A stretch of DNA of 32,502 bases from a virus (taxonomy: Duplodnaviria > Heunggongvirae > Uroviricota > Caudoviricetes). Every line of letters starts with the position of its first letter. Positions within the stretch are counted from its first letter, which is position 1. A model generated the notes under the pieces. The model searched no databases. It was not told the origin of the DNA and saw only the letters and a program-made list of their open reading frames with translations. The position numbers and the translations under genes were made by a program. The stretch lies in the IMG/VR virus record IMGVR_UViG_2636415833_000004; one strand, written 5' to 3'. Below are positions 5,162 through 14,910 of this stretch, one piece after another.

Positions 5162-7171
5162 TCACCATGACAATTTAACAAAACCCGGCGACCCATTGCC
5201 GCCCGGGAAACAGTTCGCACCAGAAGTCCCATAAGCACCAGCCGACCCGCCCGCACCGTATCCGGTGCCATTGTGACTACCACCGATAACCCCGCAACCA
5301 CCATCGCCATATACTGACGACGCTCCATTATTGCCCGCAGTGGCTTTTGTAGTACCAGTACCGCCAGTAGTACCACCATAACCACCAGAACCACCGGGTG
5401 ACGACACTCCCGAAAATGAAGACGCGCCGCCAGCAGTCCCCGAATTACCCTTGGTCATATTGCCTGCTGATGACGTGACTACGGTTCCCCCTACCCCCCC
5501 ACCTCCGACAACGACAGAAAGGACCGCGCCAGGTGTGACGGTGACAATTGTCGTCACCGGTTTTGACGCACCACCCCCACCACCAGAATATGCACCACCG
5601 CCACCGCCACCGCCGCCACCGCCGAGCACCTCTACCGACATTTTTTTTACACCGGCAGGGACAGTAAATGACCCATTCGCGGTGTACATTGCGTACTTAT
5701 TTAAGTAGCGCGCATCAGCATTTGTTACGGTGATAAAGTCCGGCGCGCCGGTAATATCCGACCAGGGGTGCTTATGGCTTGCGGCAGCTGCATTTACGTC
5801 GCTGTACGTCAGCGTGATGTCCGCTGACAACGCCTTATTGTTAACCTTGCGCGTTGTCGGAACGGCGTTTACATCGCTGTACGTCAGCGTGATGTCTGCT
5901 GACAGCGCCTTATTGTTCACCTTGCGCGTTGTCGGCACAGCGTTTACATCGCTGTACGTCAGCGTGATGTCTGCTGACAGCGCCTTATTGTTCACCTTGC
6001 GCGTTGTCGGCACAGCGTTTACGTCGCTGTACGTCAGCGTGATGTCCGCTGACAGCGGCTTATCGTTCACTTTGCGCGTTGTCGGCACGGCGTTTACATC
6101 GCTGTATGTCAGCGTAATGTCTGCTGACAGTGCCTTATTGTTCACCTTGCGCGTATCCTGCACCGCGTGAACAATGCGCGAATCATCCCCGGCAGCTACC
6201 GTCCCCGCCGCCGTTCCCACGTTACGGGTTGCAGAATTCCCCAGTTTTAAATTTTCGCGGGATTTCACTACATCATCCAGATCGGACAGATTTAGCGACC
6301 GGCGTAAATAGCGCTTATCCAGATCGTCACTGTTACGCACTGGCCGTAAATCAGTGACCGCCCCGTCTGCGGCAATTTCAGCGATTTTGAATACGTAGTG
6401 GGTTTTCCCCGCAGCGTCCGAATATTCAGCCAGATCGCCCGACGTAATAACGCAGATATCAGTGACCGGCACGCAGGCAGTCATGACAGACCCCTGCCAG
6501 ACAGTATCCAGCCAGACGGCGGCGGGTTTAGTCCCGATCGCGACATCCTGCGCGGCTTCGTTCGCCAATCGCAAACCGGCCACATAACCCAACCCAGGCA
6601 GGCAGTTATATTTCACCCCGCTACGTTGAACCAGCCACCCATCATCAAAAAACAGCGCACTGCCGTAATGATCGATATTCAGTAAACGCTGATAATCATC
6701 AATACCCGTCAGACGGGCGGTAAAATCGATCTGCCACGTTTCGGCAGGTGTATTAATCCCTGTCTTGTCTGCAGCACCGTTAAATTCAATCAAAAACGAG
6801 CGGGTAAACGCGTTTCCCTGTTCCGTCGCCGTCGTTTTCACCTTTTCCAGCGCCGGGACCGTTGTCACCATCGCTAAAAGGCCCGTTTTTTTGCAAATCA
6901 GTCCGATCCAGTTAAACGAAAAATTGCCGACGTTTGTTCCCAGGGTAAACGAGTACGCAACCGTGTTTTTATTAACCACGCCCGCAGCGTTGACGGATTC
7001 GCGGTAAACAATTTGCGCGGCATCCGGCAGACCGGCGTCACGGTTTATCACCGCATCCGGATCAAGGCCGGGCACATTAGCCAAAACAAATTCATCCAGC
7101 GAAATGTCGCCCGGCGTCAGCAGATCAGCGGCTTGCCATTGCTCAAACGCCGTCGTGATAATTGTTGCCAT
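5162..7171 (-). CDS. tail fibre protein with tandem 25-aa repeats and glycine-rich C-terminal domain
   Basis: 669 aa; N-terminus MATIITTAFEQW resembles P2 H-type fibre N-termini; five tandem copies of TRKVNNKALSADITLTYSDVNAVPT; C-terminal ~150 aa dominated by Gly runs. Confidence 0.75.
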   Translation of the reverse strand: MATIITTAFEQWQAADLLTPGDISLDEFVLANVPGLDPDAVINRDAGLPDAAQIVYRESVNAAGVVNKNTVAYSFTLGTNVGNFSFNWIGLICKKTGLLAMVTTVPALEKVKTTATEQGNAFTRSFLIEFNGAADKTGINTPAETWQIDFTARLTGIDDYQRLLNIDHYGSALFFDDGWLVQRSGVKYNCLPGLGYVAGLRLANEAAQDVAIGTKPAAVWLDTVWQGSVMTACVPVTDICVITSGDLAEYSDAAGKTHYVFKIAEIAADGAVTDLRPVRNSDDLDKRYLRRSLNLSDLDDVVKSRENLKLGNSATRNVGTAAGTVAAGDDSRIVHAVQDTRKVNNKALSADITLTYSDVNAVPTTRKVNDKPLSADITLTYSDVNAVPTTRKVNNKALSADITLTYSDVNAVPTTRKVNNKALSADITLTYSDVNAVPTTRKVNNKALSADITLTYSDVNAAAASHKHPWSDITGAPDFITVTNADARYLNKYAMYTANGSFTVPAGVKKMSVEVLGGGGGGGGGGAYSGGGGGASKPVTTIVTVTPGAVLSVVVGGGGVGGTVVTSSAGNMTKGNSGTAGGASSFSGVSSPGGSGGYGGTTGGTGTTKATAGNNGASSVYGDGGCGVIGGSHNGTGYGAGGSAGAYGTSGANCFPGGNGSPGFVKLSW
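5786..6154 (-). repeat. five tandem 75-bp in-frame coding repeats inside the tail fibre gene
   Basis: Near-identical 75-bp units visible directly in the DNA; encode aa ~340-462 of the fibre; not CRISPR (no spacers, fully coding). Confidence 0.85.
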
Positions 7172-8892: not shown

Positions 8893-9220
8893 AAACAACC
8901 TCAACAGGATCAATCAGTCCGAATTCATACGTTTCTGCCGTCACAATGACGCGGCCTGCCGCTTCCTCATACACGCGCACCGTTCCGGGGATTAGGCGGT
9001 TATCCGTTTCCACCATCAGAATAATTTGCAGATAAACATCATTGCGCATGACAGCGGAACGCTGGCCGATAAGGTGCGTTGCCAGATTGCTTTCAATGAT
9101 GGCGTGTTTAATGTCCTGACCAATGCTGACGCGGTTGTCACATAGCGTTGGTTCACGTCCGGTATTCAAAAGAAAATCACCGTTAACAATTTTCAGATCG
9201 ATATACAGTTGTTCAGTCAT
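8885..9220 (-). CDS. small baseplate protein, candidate gpW/gp25-like
   Basis: 111 aa, ATGA-coupled to tape measure stop, immediately upstream of J-like gene; size and position fit gp25-like wedge proteins. Confidence 0.45.
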   Translation of the reverse strand: MTEQLYIDLKIVNGDFLLNTGREPTLCDNRVSIGQDIKHAIIESNLATHLIGQRSAVMRNDVYLQIILMVETDNRLIPGTVRVYEEAAGRVIVTAETYEFGLIDPVEVVYE

Positions 9221-11550
9221 CCCGCCGACATCTCCGCCATTTCCGCTATTTGCTGGGCGTCCTGCGCCTGCTGCACATACACATTGACGTTACCCACGCT
9301 GCGGCTGTTATTTATATTGGTCGTGCTTTTTGTTGTTTTGCTGCTGACGTTGGCTACACCCGGATCAAGCACCCCGCCGCGTAATACGGCTGGGCTGGAA
9401 GGTGGCGCAGGCGGCTGCGCGCCAGGGACAACAAACGCAGAGGCAACACCCGACACTGGCGCAACCAGGGGCGACGCGCCCCCCGGAATAGCGGCGGCAA
9501 CTGACGCCGCCTGCGCAGCCGTTCCCGTCTGGCCCGGCGCTGCGGTTCCTTTTAACTCAATGTTGACGCCGGGCAGTTTGTTTAACTGCTCAACAATGCC
9601 GTTATAGACGCCGAAAAATTGCTGGGCGATTGAATCCCACAAACCGGAAAACAACTGGCCGACCGACTCAACGCCCGACCTGAAAGCATCAGCAAATGAA
9701 AATTCAGAGAAAGCGGCGCAGACGCTGTTCCAGCCCGCGACCACATCCGGCCAGACCTTAACCAGCCAACTGACAGCACTGATCAGCAGATTGATCGGAA
9801 ACAGAATGGCGTCGAAAGCTGCAGCAACGACAGAACCGGCCATGCTGCCAGCGTCAGAAAAAGAGGACAGTTCATTTTCGGTATACTGAATCGGTGTCAG
9901 CAGGTCGCCAAACCAGCCGCAAAGACTTTTCAGGCCATTCCACAACCAACTAACCACGGAACAGACAGCAGAAAATACCGGCCCCAACGCGGCGATCACA
10001 CCTTGCAACACCTGCGACTTTTGCGCCGCCTGCATGAAGCCAGTGATAAAACCGCTGAAAAATGCCTTGATCGGATTCCAGAACTTAACGACAGCGACAA
10101 CAACCGCACCGATCGCCAGCGCAATAAGCGCAATCAGCCCCCAGATCGGGGCAGTGACTGCGGCCAGACTCCCGCCAAATGACATCAACGCAAGGCGCGC
10201 AGCAAATAAGGTGTTACGGAAAAACCGCAACGCCCCCGAAAAATTAAGAATTGCACCAGCACCACGCGCCAGAAGTTTAAACAGCGGGGTGATCCCGGTG
10301 AAAATCCCCGCCAGCCGGATTCCGGCCCCAGCCAACTTTAAACCGCCCAGCATGACCGTAAATGCGGCCCCGGCTGCGGTGGCGCTGATAATTGCTGCCG
10401 TAACAATCCCGATCCAGCGCGTAATGTTCGGGAATTTATTCAGCCAGACGACAGCCGACTGGGCGACCTTTGTCATTTTTATCAGTAGCGGTTCCAGAAC
10501 CGGCAACAACGCAGACCCCACAGCAATTTTTACCGCCGTAATACCTGCGGCGGCGCGCTCCCACGGATCGGCAACCGTGGCGGCGGCGCGTTTTACGTCG
10601 TCCAGCCCGTCGATCGCGTCGATCTCGCTGATACTGCGTTTCAGCCCGTCCGTATCGCTGATCAGCAACTTGATCAGGGAAACCGCTTCATCACTGCCAA
10701 ACGCTTTTTTCAGCAGGTCAGAATCCGCCACTTTGCTGATATTCCCGAACCGCTTATGCAGCATGTCGAGAATTGCAGGCATTGACTTCATTTGCCCGGT
10801 GGCATCGGTAAACGACATTTTCAGCGTTTTCTGGGCGTTCCCTACCCCCGCCAGAAACGCCTTATATTTTGTCCCGGCTTCACTGCCTGACATTGTTGAC
10901 TGCAACTGACCCAGGATCGCGAATTGTTCCGCACTGCTGCGGCCTGCTGTTTGCGCAGCGGCCCCCAGTGACGTAAACGCCTGCGACATTGATTCACCGT
11001 CAGATTTAAACAGGTTGGCCGCATAGGCGGTTTGCCCGCCGATTTTCTCAGCCCATTTAATTTTGCCCATGCCGTCAGCAGTCTGTTTAAAGATGCCGTA
11101 CATGGTCCCCATATAGTTTGTGATCGTCTGCGTATCGGCCTTTGTCGCCTTTGCAACAACCGCTGACGTGGTTGTGAATCCGGTCAATTCATCAGCAGAC
11201 AATCCAGAAATTGCGGACTGAATATCGTAAGACGCGCTGACGATCTCCGCCGCGCTGCCGCCGTACTGCATACTGAATTGAAGCGCCGCGTTTTTAAGCT
11301 GCTTTAATCCCGTTTCGGTTACGTCCAGCGCCTTTACAGAGTCCAGCGCGCGGCGCATTTCGATCGCCGGTTCCAGCCCGCCTTTTAATGCCTGGCCTGC
11401 GGCCCACATTGCCGCCGTTCCCATTGCAACCTGCTGCGCGCCGCTTTTTGCCGTCTGGCCCAGTGCGCTGACCTGCTGACGAATACCGCGCAGTGGGGCG
11501 CTTGCGCGGTCAATCAGAGAAATAATATAAGTCAGCGATTCACTAGCCAT
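9217..11550 (-). CDS. tail tape measure protein
   Basis: 777 aa, Ala/Gly-rich with extended helical and hydrophobic segments, directly downstream of chaperone gene with frameshift signature. Confidence 0.8.
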   Translation of the reverse strand: MASESLTYIISLIDRASAPLRGIRQQVSALGQTAKSGAQQVAMGTAAMWAAGQALKGGLEPAIEMRRALDSVKALDVTETGLKQLKNAALQFSMQYGGSAAEIVSASYDIQSAISGLSADELTGFTTTSAVVAKATKADTQTITNYMGTMYGIFKQTADGMGKIKWAEKIGGQTAYAANLFKSDGESMSQAFTSLGAAAQTAGRSSAEQFAILGQLQSTMSGSEAGTKYKAFLAGVGNAQKTLKMSFTDATGQMKSMPAILDMLHKRFGNISKVADSDLLKKAFGSDEAVSLIKLLISDTDGLKRSISEIDAIDGLDDVKRAAATVADPWERAAAGITAVKIAVGSALLPVLEPLLIKMTKVAQSAVVWLNKFPNITRWIGIVTAAIISATAAGAAFTVMLGGLKLAGAGIRLAGIFTGITPLFKLLARGAGAILNFSGALRFFRNTLFAARLALMSFGGSLAAVTAPIWGLIALIALAIGAVVVAVVKFWNPIKAFFSGFITGFMQAAQKSQVLQGVIAALGPVFSAVCSVVSWLWNGLKSLCGWFGDLLTPIQYTENELSSFSDAGSMAGSVVAAAFDAILFPINLLISAVSWLVKVWPDVVAGWNSVCAAFSEFSFADAFRSGVESVGQLFSGLWDSIAQQFFGVYNGIVEQLNKLPGVNIELKGTAAPGQTGTAAQAASVAAAIPGGASPLVAPVSGVASAFVVPGAQPPAPPSSPAVLRGGVLDPGVANVSSKTTKSTTNINNSRSVGNVNVYVQQAQDAQQIAEMAEMSAG

Positions 11551-11553
11551 AAT

Positions 11554-11996
11554 TTATCCAAATAATTTAGCGACGCCATTCGCAACGCCAATACTGAAAT
11601 TTTCCCAGTAATGGTTATCAAGCCAGACAGCGCGGGCTAATGTCTGCTCTGAATCATCACCATCAGGCAGATAATAACGGCGCAGGGTTAGCATTTGTTC
11701 CAGCCCGTTATTTTCAATAGCCCGCACGCGGGCAGTTATTTTTTTACAACAATATCCAGTTCCGGCGCGTACTGTTTATTAACAGCCGCCGCGATCTGAA
11801 TGGCTGCACCTGGCTTTTTCAGGATGCCGTTTAATGCGTCCTTACTTTCGCGGGAAACAATGGCGCGCACATATTCAACTGATGGCGTAACTTTGTTATC
11901 CATTGCCATTTCATTGATAAAAGAGTTATAGGCGACTTCGTTCGGTTCGAAAACAACATCCACACCGGAAATAGTCAGCGTAATAGATTCATCCAT
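11554..11996 (-). CDS. predicted -1 frameshift fusion product of tail chaperone (E+E'-like)
   Basis: -1 frame is open for 61 codons from the slippery site to TAA at 11554..11556, exactly filling the gap before the tape measure ATG at 11550. Confidence 0.5.
11720..11745 (-). promoter_or_regulatory. programmed -1 ribosomal frameshift site: A AAA AAA slippery heptamer plus downstream hairpin
   Basis: Seven consecutive A (complement of 11739..11745) at the last two codons of the chaperone; GCCCGC/GCGGGC inverted repeat (11720..11733) begins 5 nt downstream. Confidence 0.5.
11736..11996 (-). CDS. tail assembly chaperone (P2 gpE-like)
   Basis: 86 aa, ATG start, immediately upstream of tape measure gene; ends in A7 slippery run. 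Confidence 0.65.
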   Translation of the reverse strand: MDESITLTISGVDVVFEPNEVAYNSFINEMAMDNKVTPSVEYVRAIVSRESKDALNGILKKPGAAIQIAAAVNKQYAPELDIVVKK

Positions 11997-12045
11997 TTTT
12001 ATTTATCCAGAATAAAGAAGTTAATATTTTAAAGCGTTTAAATGG

Positions 12046-12384
12046 TTATTTAACGCCGTTGTGTTCCAGACTGAAATGATTTCCGTCTGGTTTACTGAAA
12101 CGACCGCCCCACGTCCCGCCGAGCGATTCCCAATACTCCCCAAGCGGCAAGTAATCACGACTGTCTGTCTTATATTCGCCTTTGATAAACAGATTAAAAT
12201 CGACGGCCAGTCGCTGCGTATGCAAACTGTTTTTAATGCCGCTGCCTTTTTTGGCATTCAGTGCCGCCTGTTCCGGCGTGCGGTACGCTTCACCAAATGT
12301 CAGCCAAAAGCCATTCGCGTTGGCGTACTGGATTAATAAAGCGATCATTGATGTAAATCGCTGCTGCTTTTCACTCAGTGTCAT
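12046..12384 (-). CDS. endolysin, peptidase M15 family (L-alanyl-D-glutamate peptidase-like)
   Basis: ATG at 12384 with GGGAG 9 nt upstream, 14-nt overlap with holin stop; H-x6-D (HTQRLAVD) and D-x2-H (DGNH) zinc-ligand motifs. Confidence 0.75.
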   Translation of the reverse strand: MTLSEKQQRFTSMIALLIQYANANGFWLTFGEAYRTPEQAALNAKKGSGIKNSLHTQRLAVDFNLFIKGEYKTDSRDYLPLGEYWESLGGTWGGRFSKPDGNHFSLEHNGVK

Positions 12385-12677: not shown

Positions 12678-13139
12678 TTACCCGATTAAATCGCGGGTAT
12701 CTTCATCTGACAGATAAGGAATACCATTAATTTTGATAAATTCAGGCGCAGTCACTTTATATTTAATTTTATAAACTGATTTTTCGCCGCCTGCGGTGTC
12801 CACGTCCAGCAAACTGTCAATTGCCAGCTTACATCCAAAAGCCTCGACTTTAATTTTTTCGCTTCCCGCCTTTGCATAAAATAAAATGTCTTCCGGTTCA
12901 ATTCCGCGATAACTGCCAGCCGATGCCGCCGCATCATGGATACGTAAAAAGTTTTTGGTATCCAGTTCCATGTCACCTTCGGCGCTGACGTCGCCGTCAA
13001 CATAACCATCAGGAATGCCGCGCGTTTTCGCTACGTCAGAGTTATCAGTAATAGTCAGTGTAATTTTATTTACATGAATCGTGGTATTGAATAACGTAAT
13101 ATCAAACGCCATTCCCGAAATGCGTTTAGAACCCGACAT
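12678..13139 (-). CDS. putative tail tube protein
   Basis: Track start 13145 is TTG; ATG at 13139 has GAGG upstream; about 153 aa directly downstream of putative sheath gene. Confidence 0.5.
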   Translation of the reverse strand: MSGSKRISGMAFDITLFNTTIHVNKITLTITDNSDVAKTRGIPDGYVDGDVSAEGDMELDTKNFLRIHDAAASAGSYRGIEPEDILFYAKAGSEKIKVEAFGCKLAIDSLLDVDTAGGEKSVYKIKYKVTAPEFIKINGIPYLSDEDTRDLIG

Positions 13140-13141
13140 AA

Positions 13142-14281
13142 TCAAGCCTCATTCTGTACAGACAGATCAACCATAATATTTACGCCAATAACCAGCGGGC
13201 ATTCAGTCGGGCGCGCCTGTACGTAAATATTTACATGCGTTGAATCAATCCATGTAATAACAATATCACCCTCTTTTGGTGAATAGACTTCACCGGGGAA
13301 TGACACGCCGTTAATAGTGGTACTTTTCGCCATCGTGCGCAGCGGTTTAGCAAACTGCATTTGATGATATTCAACGCTGGACGGCGTGGAATTTAACGAG
13401 CGGTTACCAATATTGCGGATTGCAAGCAAACGCACCTGGCGCGCGACTTTATCAACAATGCGCAGAATGCGGATTGACTGATAATCGCTGCCTTTAGCAG
13501 CCAGCAGCGGGCCATCATTCCAGTAAATGCCCTCAAAATCCGCATACGTGACCGGAACAGAATAACGCGCAGCGTCCAGCGCCTGCACAATATCCGCTGT
13601 TACCGTCTCTCCGTTTTTGTCTTTAGTTGCGTTGCCAACAGACACGAGCGATCCAGTTAAAACGCGCGCGGGAGTATCTGCAATTGTCACCAGCCGATTA
13701 CATAAACGTCCAGCAATTACACCTGGCAAATTCTCATAAAGACGGGGAACCAGCATAACGCCATCAGCAACTAACCCCGTTTGCCATTGCGTTAAAGCGG
13801 CGGAATATTGTTGCCATGTCATGTCACCGCCAACAGGATTTTTAACGGGTAAAATAAACCATGTCCAACGACCGTATGTCGCGATTAATTCCTGGCGGAG
13901 AGCGGCAGCTTCTTTGGCGCTTTTAGTTAGAGAAAAACCGGACTCTTCTTCATTCCAGTCAGCAAAATCCTCTAACAATACAACGCCCTCAAAACTTCCG
14001 TATTTTTGGCATTTTTTAACAGCATCCTGCCACTTTTCGTCAGAATCCATAAAATAAACCGATGCCGACCAATTTTGCCCCGCATTCATCATGGCGGCGC
14101 GAATATCGTCACCCGCTGAACTTGTAATTTTGTCTAAATCAGTTTGAGTATTTAGCGTGTAAAAACCTGGGGTGTAATTTTCAAGCGGCGCATAGCTGAC
14201 GAACAATAAATGCCGCCCTATTTCATTTACAGTGCCTTGCGCCAAATCAATTTGATTAACCTGAACTTGTGGAAAAGTCAT
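13142..14281 (-). CDS. putative tail sheath protein
   Basis: 379 aa, ATGA-coupled to upstream gene, followed by a ~150-aa tube-sized gene; positional and size inference. Confidence 0.5.
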   Translation of the reverse strand: MTFPQVQVNQIDLAQGTVNEIGRHLLFVSYAPLENYTPGFYTLNTQTDLDKITSSAGDDIRAAMMNAGQNWSASVYFMDSDEKWQDAVKKCQKYGSFEGVVLLEDFADWNEEESGFSLTKSAKEAAALRQELIATYGRWTWFILPVKNPVGGDMTWQQYSAALTQWQTGLVADGVMLVPRLYENLPGVIAGRLCNRLVTIADTPARVLTGSLVSVGNATKDKNGETVTADIVQALDAARYSVPVTYADFEGIYWNDGPLLAAKGSDYQSIRILRIVDKVARQVRLLAIRNIGNRSLNSTPSSVEYHQMQFAKPLRTMAKSTTINGVSFPGEVYSPKEGDIVITWIDSTHVNIYVQARPTECPLVIGVNIMVDLSVQNEA

Positions 14282-14910
14282 TTTTTTCTCACCTTTTTTA
14301 ATTCCTGCGCTAATATTCGCGCGTTATGTTTTGAGCGGGTATCCAGCCAGGGGCGCGGCGGCGCGGGGATGTCCCATTCTTTTTTCGCGGCTTCTTCTTT
14401 CAGAATGCGAATGATTAGCCCCGCCTGACCCTGCTTAATGTTCTGCGTAATCCATTTAATTGACGGCGTTTTTTTCTTTTTGCCCTGTTTAACCGTGTAA
14501 CCAAGCTGGCGCAGCTTTACCGCCTGACCACGCGTGACCGGCGCATCATATGCAGGCTGGCCGCGCTGGCGCTTGAGCTGCGCAGCCGTCACATGCTCCG
14601 GCTTACCGTAGTGATGGCGCGCTGCCATATCGCTATGAACAGGGTTTTTCCAGTGCAACTTCACATCGTCAGAAGTCGGCGTAATACTCATTAGCGCAGG
14701 AATGCGGCGCATCATTTTTTTACTGCCACGCTGGCGCTTTTCCCATCCGCGCCCGTCCGGCGTTCGCTGCGCCCTGGCTTTCTGTTGCGCTTCCCGCTTA
14801 ATCCGCCTGGCGGCATTCTGCAAAACCTGCCGCCTTTTTGCCGGTGGCAGTTCCAGCGCCGCAAGCCTGATTAATGCTTCACGCTGGCCGCGCAGATCGG
14901 TTCTAATCAC
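14278..14910 (-). CDS. phage virion morphogenesis / tail completion protein (gpS-family-like)
   Basis: Track start 15084 is TTG and overlaps upstream gene; GTG at 14910 with GGGGTGG upstream; segment ARRIKREAQQKARAQRTPDGRGW resembles virion morphogenesis family; basic C-terminus. Confidence 0.5.
   Translation of the reverse strand: MIRTDLRGQREALIRLAALELPPAKRRQVLQNAARRIKREAQQKARAQRTPDGRGWEKRQRGSKKMMRRIPALMSITPTSDDVKLHWKNPVHSDMAARHHYGKPEHVTAAQLKRQRGQPAYDAPVTRGQAVKLRQLGYTVKQGKKKKTPSIKWITQNIKQGQAGLIIRILKEEAAKKEWDIPAPPRPWLDTRSKHNARILAQELKKVRKK

Follow-up and report, generated by a model that had tools for sequence, protein, structure and literature searches.

The 3′ end of a tail assembly chaperone gene in an HP1-like (Peduoviridae) prophage of E. 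coli very probably carries a G/GT-type -1 programmed ribosomal frameshift site, at which a short and a long chaperone would be produced from one start codon. The site lies on the minus strand of a 32,502-nucleotide stretch of viral DNA, referred to here as the window and corresponding to IMG/VR contig UViG_3300028969_000137. Among the recoding events of tailed phages, frameshifting in tail chaperone genes ranks with the most conserved. The original prediction had read such a frameshift from this single sequence, and a signature of that kind is weak evidence until relatives are compared; the comparison is decisive. The prediction is now supported by the assignment of the short product to the Phage_TAC_10 family, its position next to the tape measure gene, the conservation of heptamer and extension, and the coding constraint on the extension. 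The reading is strong because, across relatives, the heptamer is conserved, the extension is coding and mostly without a start codon, and no in-frame fusion of the two halves is found.

The features of the locus, all on the minus strand, are the following.

9217..11550, tail tape measure protein gene (Pfam PF10145 PhageMin_Tail, E = 7e-31; RefSeq 'phage tail tape measure protein')
11554..11739, -1 frame extension (T-like domain), 61 sense codons and TAA, entered by re-reading A11739
11670..11715, second predicted stem-loop, AUAACGGGC... pairing with ...GCGCCGUUAU
11720..11733, GC hairpin, inverted repeat GCCCGC-GU-GCGGGC, effectively a 5-bp stem with a 4-nt loop, 5 nt past the heptamer
11736..11738, zero-frame stop TAA abutting the heptamer, a possible 'shifty stop' contributor
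11739..11745, slippery heptamer A_AAA_AAA (X_XXY_YYZ in the zero frame), made up of the last base of GTA and the last two sense codons
11736..11996, zero-frame tail assembly chaperone gene (G-like), 86 aa and TAA, predicted mass 9.37 kDa
join(11996..11739, 11739..11557), predicted frameshift product GT, 147 aa, 16.32 kDa
holin gene (Pfam Phage_holin_3_2) and M15 endolysin gene (Peptidase_M15_4), located in the interval from the chaperone gene to the tube gene
12678..13145, tail tube gene, HP1 type (Pfam Phage_HP1_Orf24)
13142..14281, tail sheath gene, HP1 type (Pfam DUF2586)

The chaperone ORF runs from the ATG at 11996 to the TAA at 11738..11736, and its 3′ end reads GTT GTA AAA AAA TAA. The codons and the seven-A run that had been placed there were verified on the minus strand. 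The 86-aa product matched Pfam PF10963 (Phage_TAC_10) over the entire profile, positions 1-82 of 82 (E = 1e-33; 115.7 bits against a gathering cutoff of 25.7 bits). Genes are arranged in the order sheath, tube, holin, M15 endolysin, chaperone, extension and tape measure, which matches the order in HP1. The criteria for G/GT pairs of Xu, Hendrix & Duda (2004; summaries in PMC3091744 and PMC5009743) place the two genes between a major tail or tube gene and the tape measure gene. The chaperone gene here is immediately 5′ of the tape measure gene, whose product is its presumed client, and lysis genes separate it from the tube gene, as they do in HP1. The stop codon of the M15 endolysin gene (12046) is about 50 nt from the chaperone ATG with no spanin ORF in between; one or more spanin (Rz-like) genes are annotated between endolysin and chaperone in HP1, YenM324, phiO18P and SI7 (L003, L084, L086 and L091).

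Translation of the minus strand verified that the -1 frame stays open for 61 codons up to a stop at 11554..11556. The sense codons occupy 11739..11557, beginning with AUA and followed by TAA at 11556..11554, and their product is ITARVRAIENNGLEQ...AKLFG. The +1 frame, read on from the end of the chaperone gene, meets a stop after 7 codons. The tape measure ATG, at 11550, is 3 nt past the stop of the extension. The extension matched Pfam PF21830 (DUF6890; E = 5e-20, 71.3 bits against a gathering cutoff of 23.6 bits) over residues 105-146 of the fused product. In the PHROG collection, the chaperone half corresponds to PHROG 1214 and the extension to PHROG 7050, both listed as 'unknown function'. 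NCBIfam contains no model for either half. A Glu-C peptide spanning the junction of the predicted fusion would be LDIVVKKITARVRAIE.

A long open -1 frame has little meaning in this window. The frame is open for at least 60 codons past the stop in 23 of the 77 ORFs of at least 80 aa, since neighbouring genes are tightly packed and overlap, and the open frame was thus rejected as evidence in itself. Ten A7 runs occur on the minus strand of the window. One of them, at 14287..14278, forms a second A_AAA_AAA followed by a stop (TGA) at the end of a virion-morphogenesis gene, and its -1 frame is that of the sheath gene (ATG at 14281). This A7 and stop were used as a negative control. The run looks like the A-rich spacer of the ribosome-binding site of the sheath gene (AAGGTGAG), and it was rejected as a second recoding site, not being conserved in a 91%-identical relative, L006 (GAGGAAAAAATGA).

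The junction was compared in 80 IMG/VR loci with 58-100% protein identity and in eight named phages with identities down to about 35% (HP1, F108, phiO18P, PV94, yong1, 1.202.O, SI7 and YenM324). The unique relatives number 79 and range from HP1 to phages of Vibrio and Pseudoalteromonas. The named relatives of the locus belong to Peduoviridae and include ESSI-2-like phages, YenM324, phiO18P, PV94, SI7, HP1/HP2 and F108, among others. In the 80 loci and the eight named phages, the chaperone gene ends in GTA AAA AAC or GTA AAA AAA followed by a stop, with rare NTA variants. Among the unique relatives the heptamer is in frame in 79/79, as A_AAA_AAC in 73 and A_AAA_AAA in 6. The -1 frame is open for 59-63 codons and reaches just 5′ of the tape measure start where this was checked, and the +1 frame meets a stop after 1-9 codons in almost every relative and after up to 40 in a few. 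Thus the heptamer followed by an open -1 frame, which characterises G/GT pairs, is a property of the whole set. The stop codon abuts the heptamer in 78 of the 79. The exception is phage ACA1, in which the zero-frame stop is located 7 codons (21 nt) past the heptamer, yet the in-frame A7 is retained.

Codon choice at the slip site was examined against the remainder of the same genes. The codon preceding the A run is always NTA (GTA in 76 of the 79, and CTA, ATA and TTA in one each), whereas GTA accounts for only 16% of Val codons elsewhere. The penultimate Lys codon is AAA in 79/79, as against 76% of Lys codons elsewhere. The last codon is either AAC (Asn) or AAA (Lys); AAG does not occur, nor does AAT, the more frequent Asn codon in other parts of these genes. 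NTA AAA AAM is therefore retained in every sequence despite amino acid changes, and the replacements of V by L or I keep the final A. This pattern of codon use indicates that selection at the slip site is acting on the RNA sequence itself and not on the encoded amino acids. Inspection by eye of the most frequent 18-nt sequences 5′ of the heptamer (CTGGAAATTGAAGT and similar) showed no Shine-Dalgarno-like stimulator comparable to that of dnaX.

The same run could act during transcription. RNA polymerase stuttering on the A7 (T7 in the template) would add one A and put DUF6890 in phase, and since the run here is homopolymeric, the protein made after one such insertion would be the same, joined at VKK-ITAR. 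Bacteria and IS elements make use of transcriptional slippage on A runs (PMC5009743, a review). The A7 itself is found in only the six relatives noted above; the other 73 have just six A's and then C. A run of six A's is short for productive polymerase slippage, as the known cases have about nine. In addition, the run is always in the X_XXY_YYZ register, and the covarying stem that most relatives have 8 nt past it shows the geometry of a ribosomal stimulator. Transcriptional slippage is disfavoured on account of the A6C in 73/79, the fixed register and the downstream stem, and we consider it very unlikely as the source of the long product.

The extension was next considered as a coding sequence. 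Its column entropies at codon positions 1, 2 and 3 are 0.51, 0.40 and 1.22 bits overall, and 0.42, 0.48 and 1.21 bits in codons 1-15. A motif, L-x-x-R-V-x-x-I-E-x-N-x-L-x-Q, is conserved right after the slip site. Judged from this third-position-dominated variation, the extension is protein-coding from the first post-slip codon and under purifying selection. The original prediction held that no conventional start codon opens this frame, and in this it was mistaken, for a GTG at 11727 (codon 5) and an ATG at 11694 (codon 16) lie in frame. On the sequence of this lineage taken alone, the domain may be separately initiated.

DUF6890 would then be an independent small gene starting from GTG 11727 or ATG 11694, with the A run incidental. 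The annotation appears to favour this: PGAP lists a separate 46-aa 'DUF6890 family protein' in 7/7 E. coli genomes with the locus, and several phage records list two genes. However, neither GTG 11727 nor ATG 11694 is preceded by a Shine-Dalgarno-like motif, and such motifs are almost absent from the extension frames of the 79 relatives. In 48 of the 79, the first ATG, GTG or TTG is at codon 48 or later of about 63, so that independent initiation cannot produce the domain there. At the level of the family, therefore, the second ORF is one lacking its own start and coding from the slip site, as in G/GT systems. The 15-18 residues 5′ of the annotated start are conserved, with variation concentrated at third positions, and the heptamer is conserved at synonymous sites. 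The N-termini of the database proteins are ragged, beginning anywhere from query position 3 to 22. A separate gene is accordingly a most improbable account of the extension.

Database searches gave the same picture of two halves in two frames. A tblastn search for the fused sequence recovered both halves in 68 phage records, in each case as separate pieces whose frames differ. The 56 protein matches to the fused query are all of 82-87 aa and cover the chaperone half only. A HMMER search with the extension in 1.84 billion representative proteins gave 27 genuine matches of 30-81 aa, and among those 1.84 billion no in-frame fusion of the extension to the chaperone was found. Two long matches in this search were rejected as unrelated repeat proteins. 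A sequence search for solved homologs likewise returned spurious repeat-protein matches only; the fold may be compatible with tail assembly chaperones. Neither the DUF6890 model (44 positions; Pfam match at about 11683..11557) nor PHROG 7050 (47 positions) covers the first 15-18 or so residues past the slip site, and both were thus apparently built from calls truncated at arbitrary internal starts.

RNA structure downstream of the heptamer was then analyzed. The GC-rich inverted repeat at 11720..11733 is present as originally described, 5 nt past the heptamer. The local hairpin has a minimum free energy of -9.1 kcal/mol and a z-score of -1.76, and 12 of 200 dinucleotide shuffles fold as well. 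It is found at the identical position in four relatives (L045, L054, L072 and L075), and other local hairpins occur past the heptamer in PV94 and SI7. The closest relative, L006, has neither the local hairpin nor the stem of the majority. Of the suggestion that the hairpin is a conserved stimulator, its existence and its shared position in four relatives hold good, whereas the marginal z-score and its absence in L006 weigh against conservation. It is plausibly a lineage-specific replacement stimulator, though a weak candidate, and it is unnecessary to the argument for frameshifting. A 79-nt fold that includes the second predicted stem-loop has a free energy of -23.4 kcal/mol and a z-score of -1.90. 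In Rfam, no family matched 11450..12100 at E ≤ 1.

In the relatives, the 50 nt past the heptamer are usually among the most structured segments of both ORFs (median percentile 0.06; 40 of 53 unique junctions at or below 0.2). Most commonly the structure is an 8-bp stem that begins 8 nt past the heptamer, alignment columns 16-23 being paired with columns 39-46. In all, 85.6% of its cells are paired, as against 14-46% in slid controls. Double changes are seen at six of the eight pairs, in 25 cells, and 0/500 shuffles reach the observed values; the pair 23-39, for example, is G:C in 27 sequences and A:U in 11. The sequence analysed here does not have this stem, as only 5 of the 8 pairs can be formed.

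That hairpin and A/T run form a terminator or another non-coding signal, with the open -1 frame a chance or decaying ORF, is effectively refuted by the coding constraint on the extension: a consensus scan does flag 11720..11733 followed by AGTTATTTTT as terminator-like on the plus strand, and long -1 extensions are common in the window, with the second A7 and stop at 14287..14278 evidently not a recoding site, but all genes here are on the minus strand, the plus-strand T-run begins 5 nt past the stem in a poor geometry, no U-run follows the stem on the minus strand, and the extension matches Pfam and PHROG families and is under purifying selection.

The locus was compared with the well-known tail chaperone pairs. 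In P2, E and E+E' are produced by a -1 frameshift at T_TTT_TTG (Christie et al. 2002, as cited in PMC3091744), and the heptamer was also read in a P2 sequence (L092). Both phages are Peduoviridae with a contractile tail, and in both a small chaperone gene directly 5′ of the tape measure gene has a -1 slip near its 3′ end, so that the two products share an N-terminus; they are of 91 and 142 aa in P2 and of 86 and 147 aa here. The extension ends at the tape measure start in both. The differences are in the slip site itself, which is A_AAA_AAA or A_AAA_AAC in this family, in the zero-frame stop, which is 6 codons past the heptamer in P2 and abuts it here, and in the holin and endolysin genes, which here separate the tube gene from the chaperone gene. 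The account of P2 in PMC3091744 reports no downstream stem, whereas most relatives here have one.

Alignment of the family profile with P2 E+E' by hhalign gave a probability of 0.2% and an E-value of 0.3, and beyond Phage_TAC_10 and DUF6890 no Pfam family, P2-type ones included, was matched at E ≤ 1. Homology to the P2 E+E' family was therefore rejected. The resemblance to P2 E/E+E' and lambda G/GT that had been pointed out originally is thus one of architecture, while homology, for which the P2 comparison was run, was not detected. Lambda is a siphovirus whose chaperone belongs to a different Pfam family, and its slip site is G_GGA_AAG, not the one used here. The roles of the lambda domains, the shared domain binding the tape measure protein and the extension recruiting the tube protein, are attributed in PMC5009743 to Levin 1993 and Xu 2004, 2013 and 2014; these roles have been shown for lambda, whereas for the present proteins we infer them.

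The true homologs are HP1 orf26 and ACA1 gp36/gp36a, with 47% (HP1) and 33% (ACA1) identity over both halves. Gene order, the A-rich heptamer and the -1 extension are shared with the HP1 group. The heptamer in HP1 is A_AAA_AAC and not the A_AAA_AAA found here, and the local 5-bp hairpin of this sequence contrasts with the majority long-range stem of the group. By these sequence relationships the locus is a member of the HP1 orf26 group (Phage_TAC_10 plus DUF6890).

The following course of events is proposed for the G/GT-type frameshift. Most ribosomes would translate the 86-aa chaperone and terminate at the TAA at 11738..11736. A minority would move one nucleotide back on A_AAA_AAA (11745..11739), with the two Lys-tRNAs re-pairing on AAA AAA, and A11739 would be re-read as the first base of AUA, leading into the 61 codons of the extension. 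The resulting 147-aa product would carry the shared N-terminal chaperone domain and the C-terminal DUF6890 domain, joined at VKK-ITAR. If lambda gpG/gpGT and P2 E/E+E' are taken as models, the shared domain would coat the tape measure protein, and the rare DUF6890 extension could recruit the tail tube protein and start tube polymerisation. A low rate of slipping would set the ratio of short to long product. From the sequences we infer the slippage itself, its efficiency, the stimulatory roles of stop codon and hairpin and the binding partners. In G/GT systems as summarised in PMC3091744 and PMC5009743, the two proteins are produced in unequal amounts, tail assembly depends on each of them, and neither is present in virions.

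In E. coli, ribosomes slip far more readily on A_AAA_AAG than on A_AAA_AAA or A_AAA_AAC (Atkins et al. 2016, PMC5009743), and the low rate of the latter two fits a G/GT system that needs only a few percent of the long form. As a 'shifty stop' (Weiss et al. 1987, as cited in PMC5009743), the abutting stop codon may contribute to frameshifting. Tentatively, and with more doubt than confidence, the abutting stop could have been selected as a part of the recoding signal. Slow decoding by release factor would then compete with -1 re-pairing, the kinetics of termination would set the G:GT ratio, the downstream stems would be interchangeable boosters gained and lost by individual lineages, and the A7 variants might add some transcriptional slippage. 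The turnover of boosters is suggested by the covarying 8-bp stem in most relatives, the local 5-bp hairpin here and the lack of either in L006. With heptamer and abutting stop fixed and the downstream structures alternative or absent, the HP1-like family offers a natural series for the turnover of -1 frameshift stimulators.

The frameshift at this locus is an unannotated case of the well-known phage G/GT mechanism, and in the searchable literature no experimental frameshift work was found for the HP1-like Phage_TAC_10/DUF6890 family. In GenBank, the record of Pseudoalteromonas phage ACA1 joins the two frames in one CDS, with the description 'projected programmed frameshift analogous to P2'. 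The extension is unannotated in HP1, PV94, 1.202.O and YenM324, and it is annotated as a separate small gene in F108, phiO18P, SI7, yong1 and RefSeq E. coli. It had been expected that standard ORF callers would miss the extension; NCBI PGAP does call it, as a separate gene cut short to 46 aa, which begins at ATG 11694 and is named 'DUF6890 family protein'. This holds for each of the seven complete E. coli genomes with the locus (100% identity), strain 40EC (NZ_CP070920) among them. The long product is thus split or omitted in RefSeq/PGAP and in most GenBank records of the HP1-like group. In thousands of prophage annotations an essential tail protein is missing, or a truncated 'DUF6890 family protein' stands in its place. 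DUF6890 and PHROG 7050 can be identified with the T-like domain that the frameshift adds at the C-terminus of the Phage_TAC_10 chaperone.

Several further observations were made in the window. A motif, TGGATAAAT, is common to the start regions of the chaperone and tape measure genes, where it lies just 5′ of the ATG on the minus strand, in the contexts CTGGATAAATAAAAATGG (about 12010..11996) and TTGGATAAATTATGG (about 11562..11548); the tape measure copy includes the stop codon of the frameshift extension. In a tail-fibre-like protein of 669 aa, encoded at 5162..7171 on the minus strand, a 25-aa unit, TRKVNNKALSADITLTYSDVNAVPT, is present about five times in tandem, and the C-terminal third of the protein is very glycine-rich, GGGGGGGGGGAYSGGGGG....

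The chaperone gene also has a counterpart in bacterial CRISPR arrays. A short match to positions 11859..11893 is present in a type I-E array in about 87 of 5426 complete E. coli genomes, whereas the prophage itself is present in only 7 E. coli genomes. In the array examined (L002, about 1511-1542), which adjoins queE/ygcE, the 32-nt spacer TTACGCCATCAGTTGAATATGTGCGCGCCATT is identical over 32/32 positions to 11890..11859. The protospacer is preceded by AAG (11893..11891), the canonical I-E PAM.
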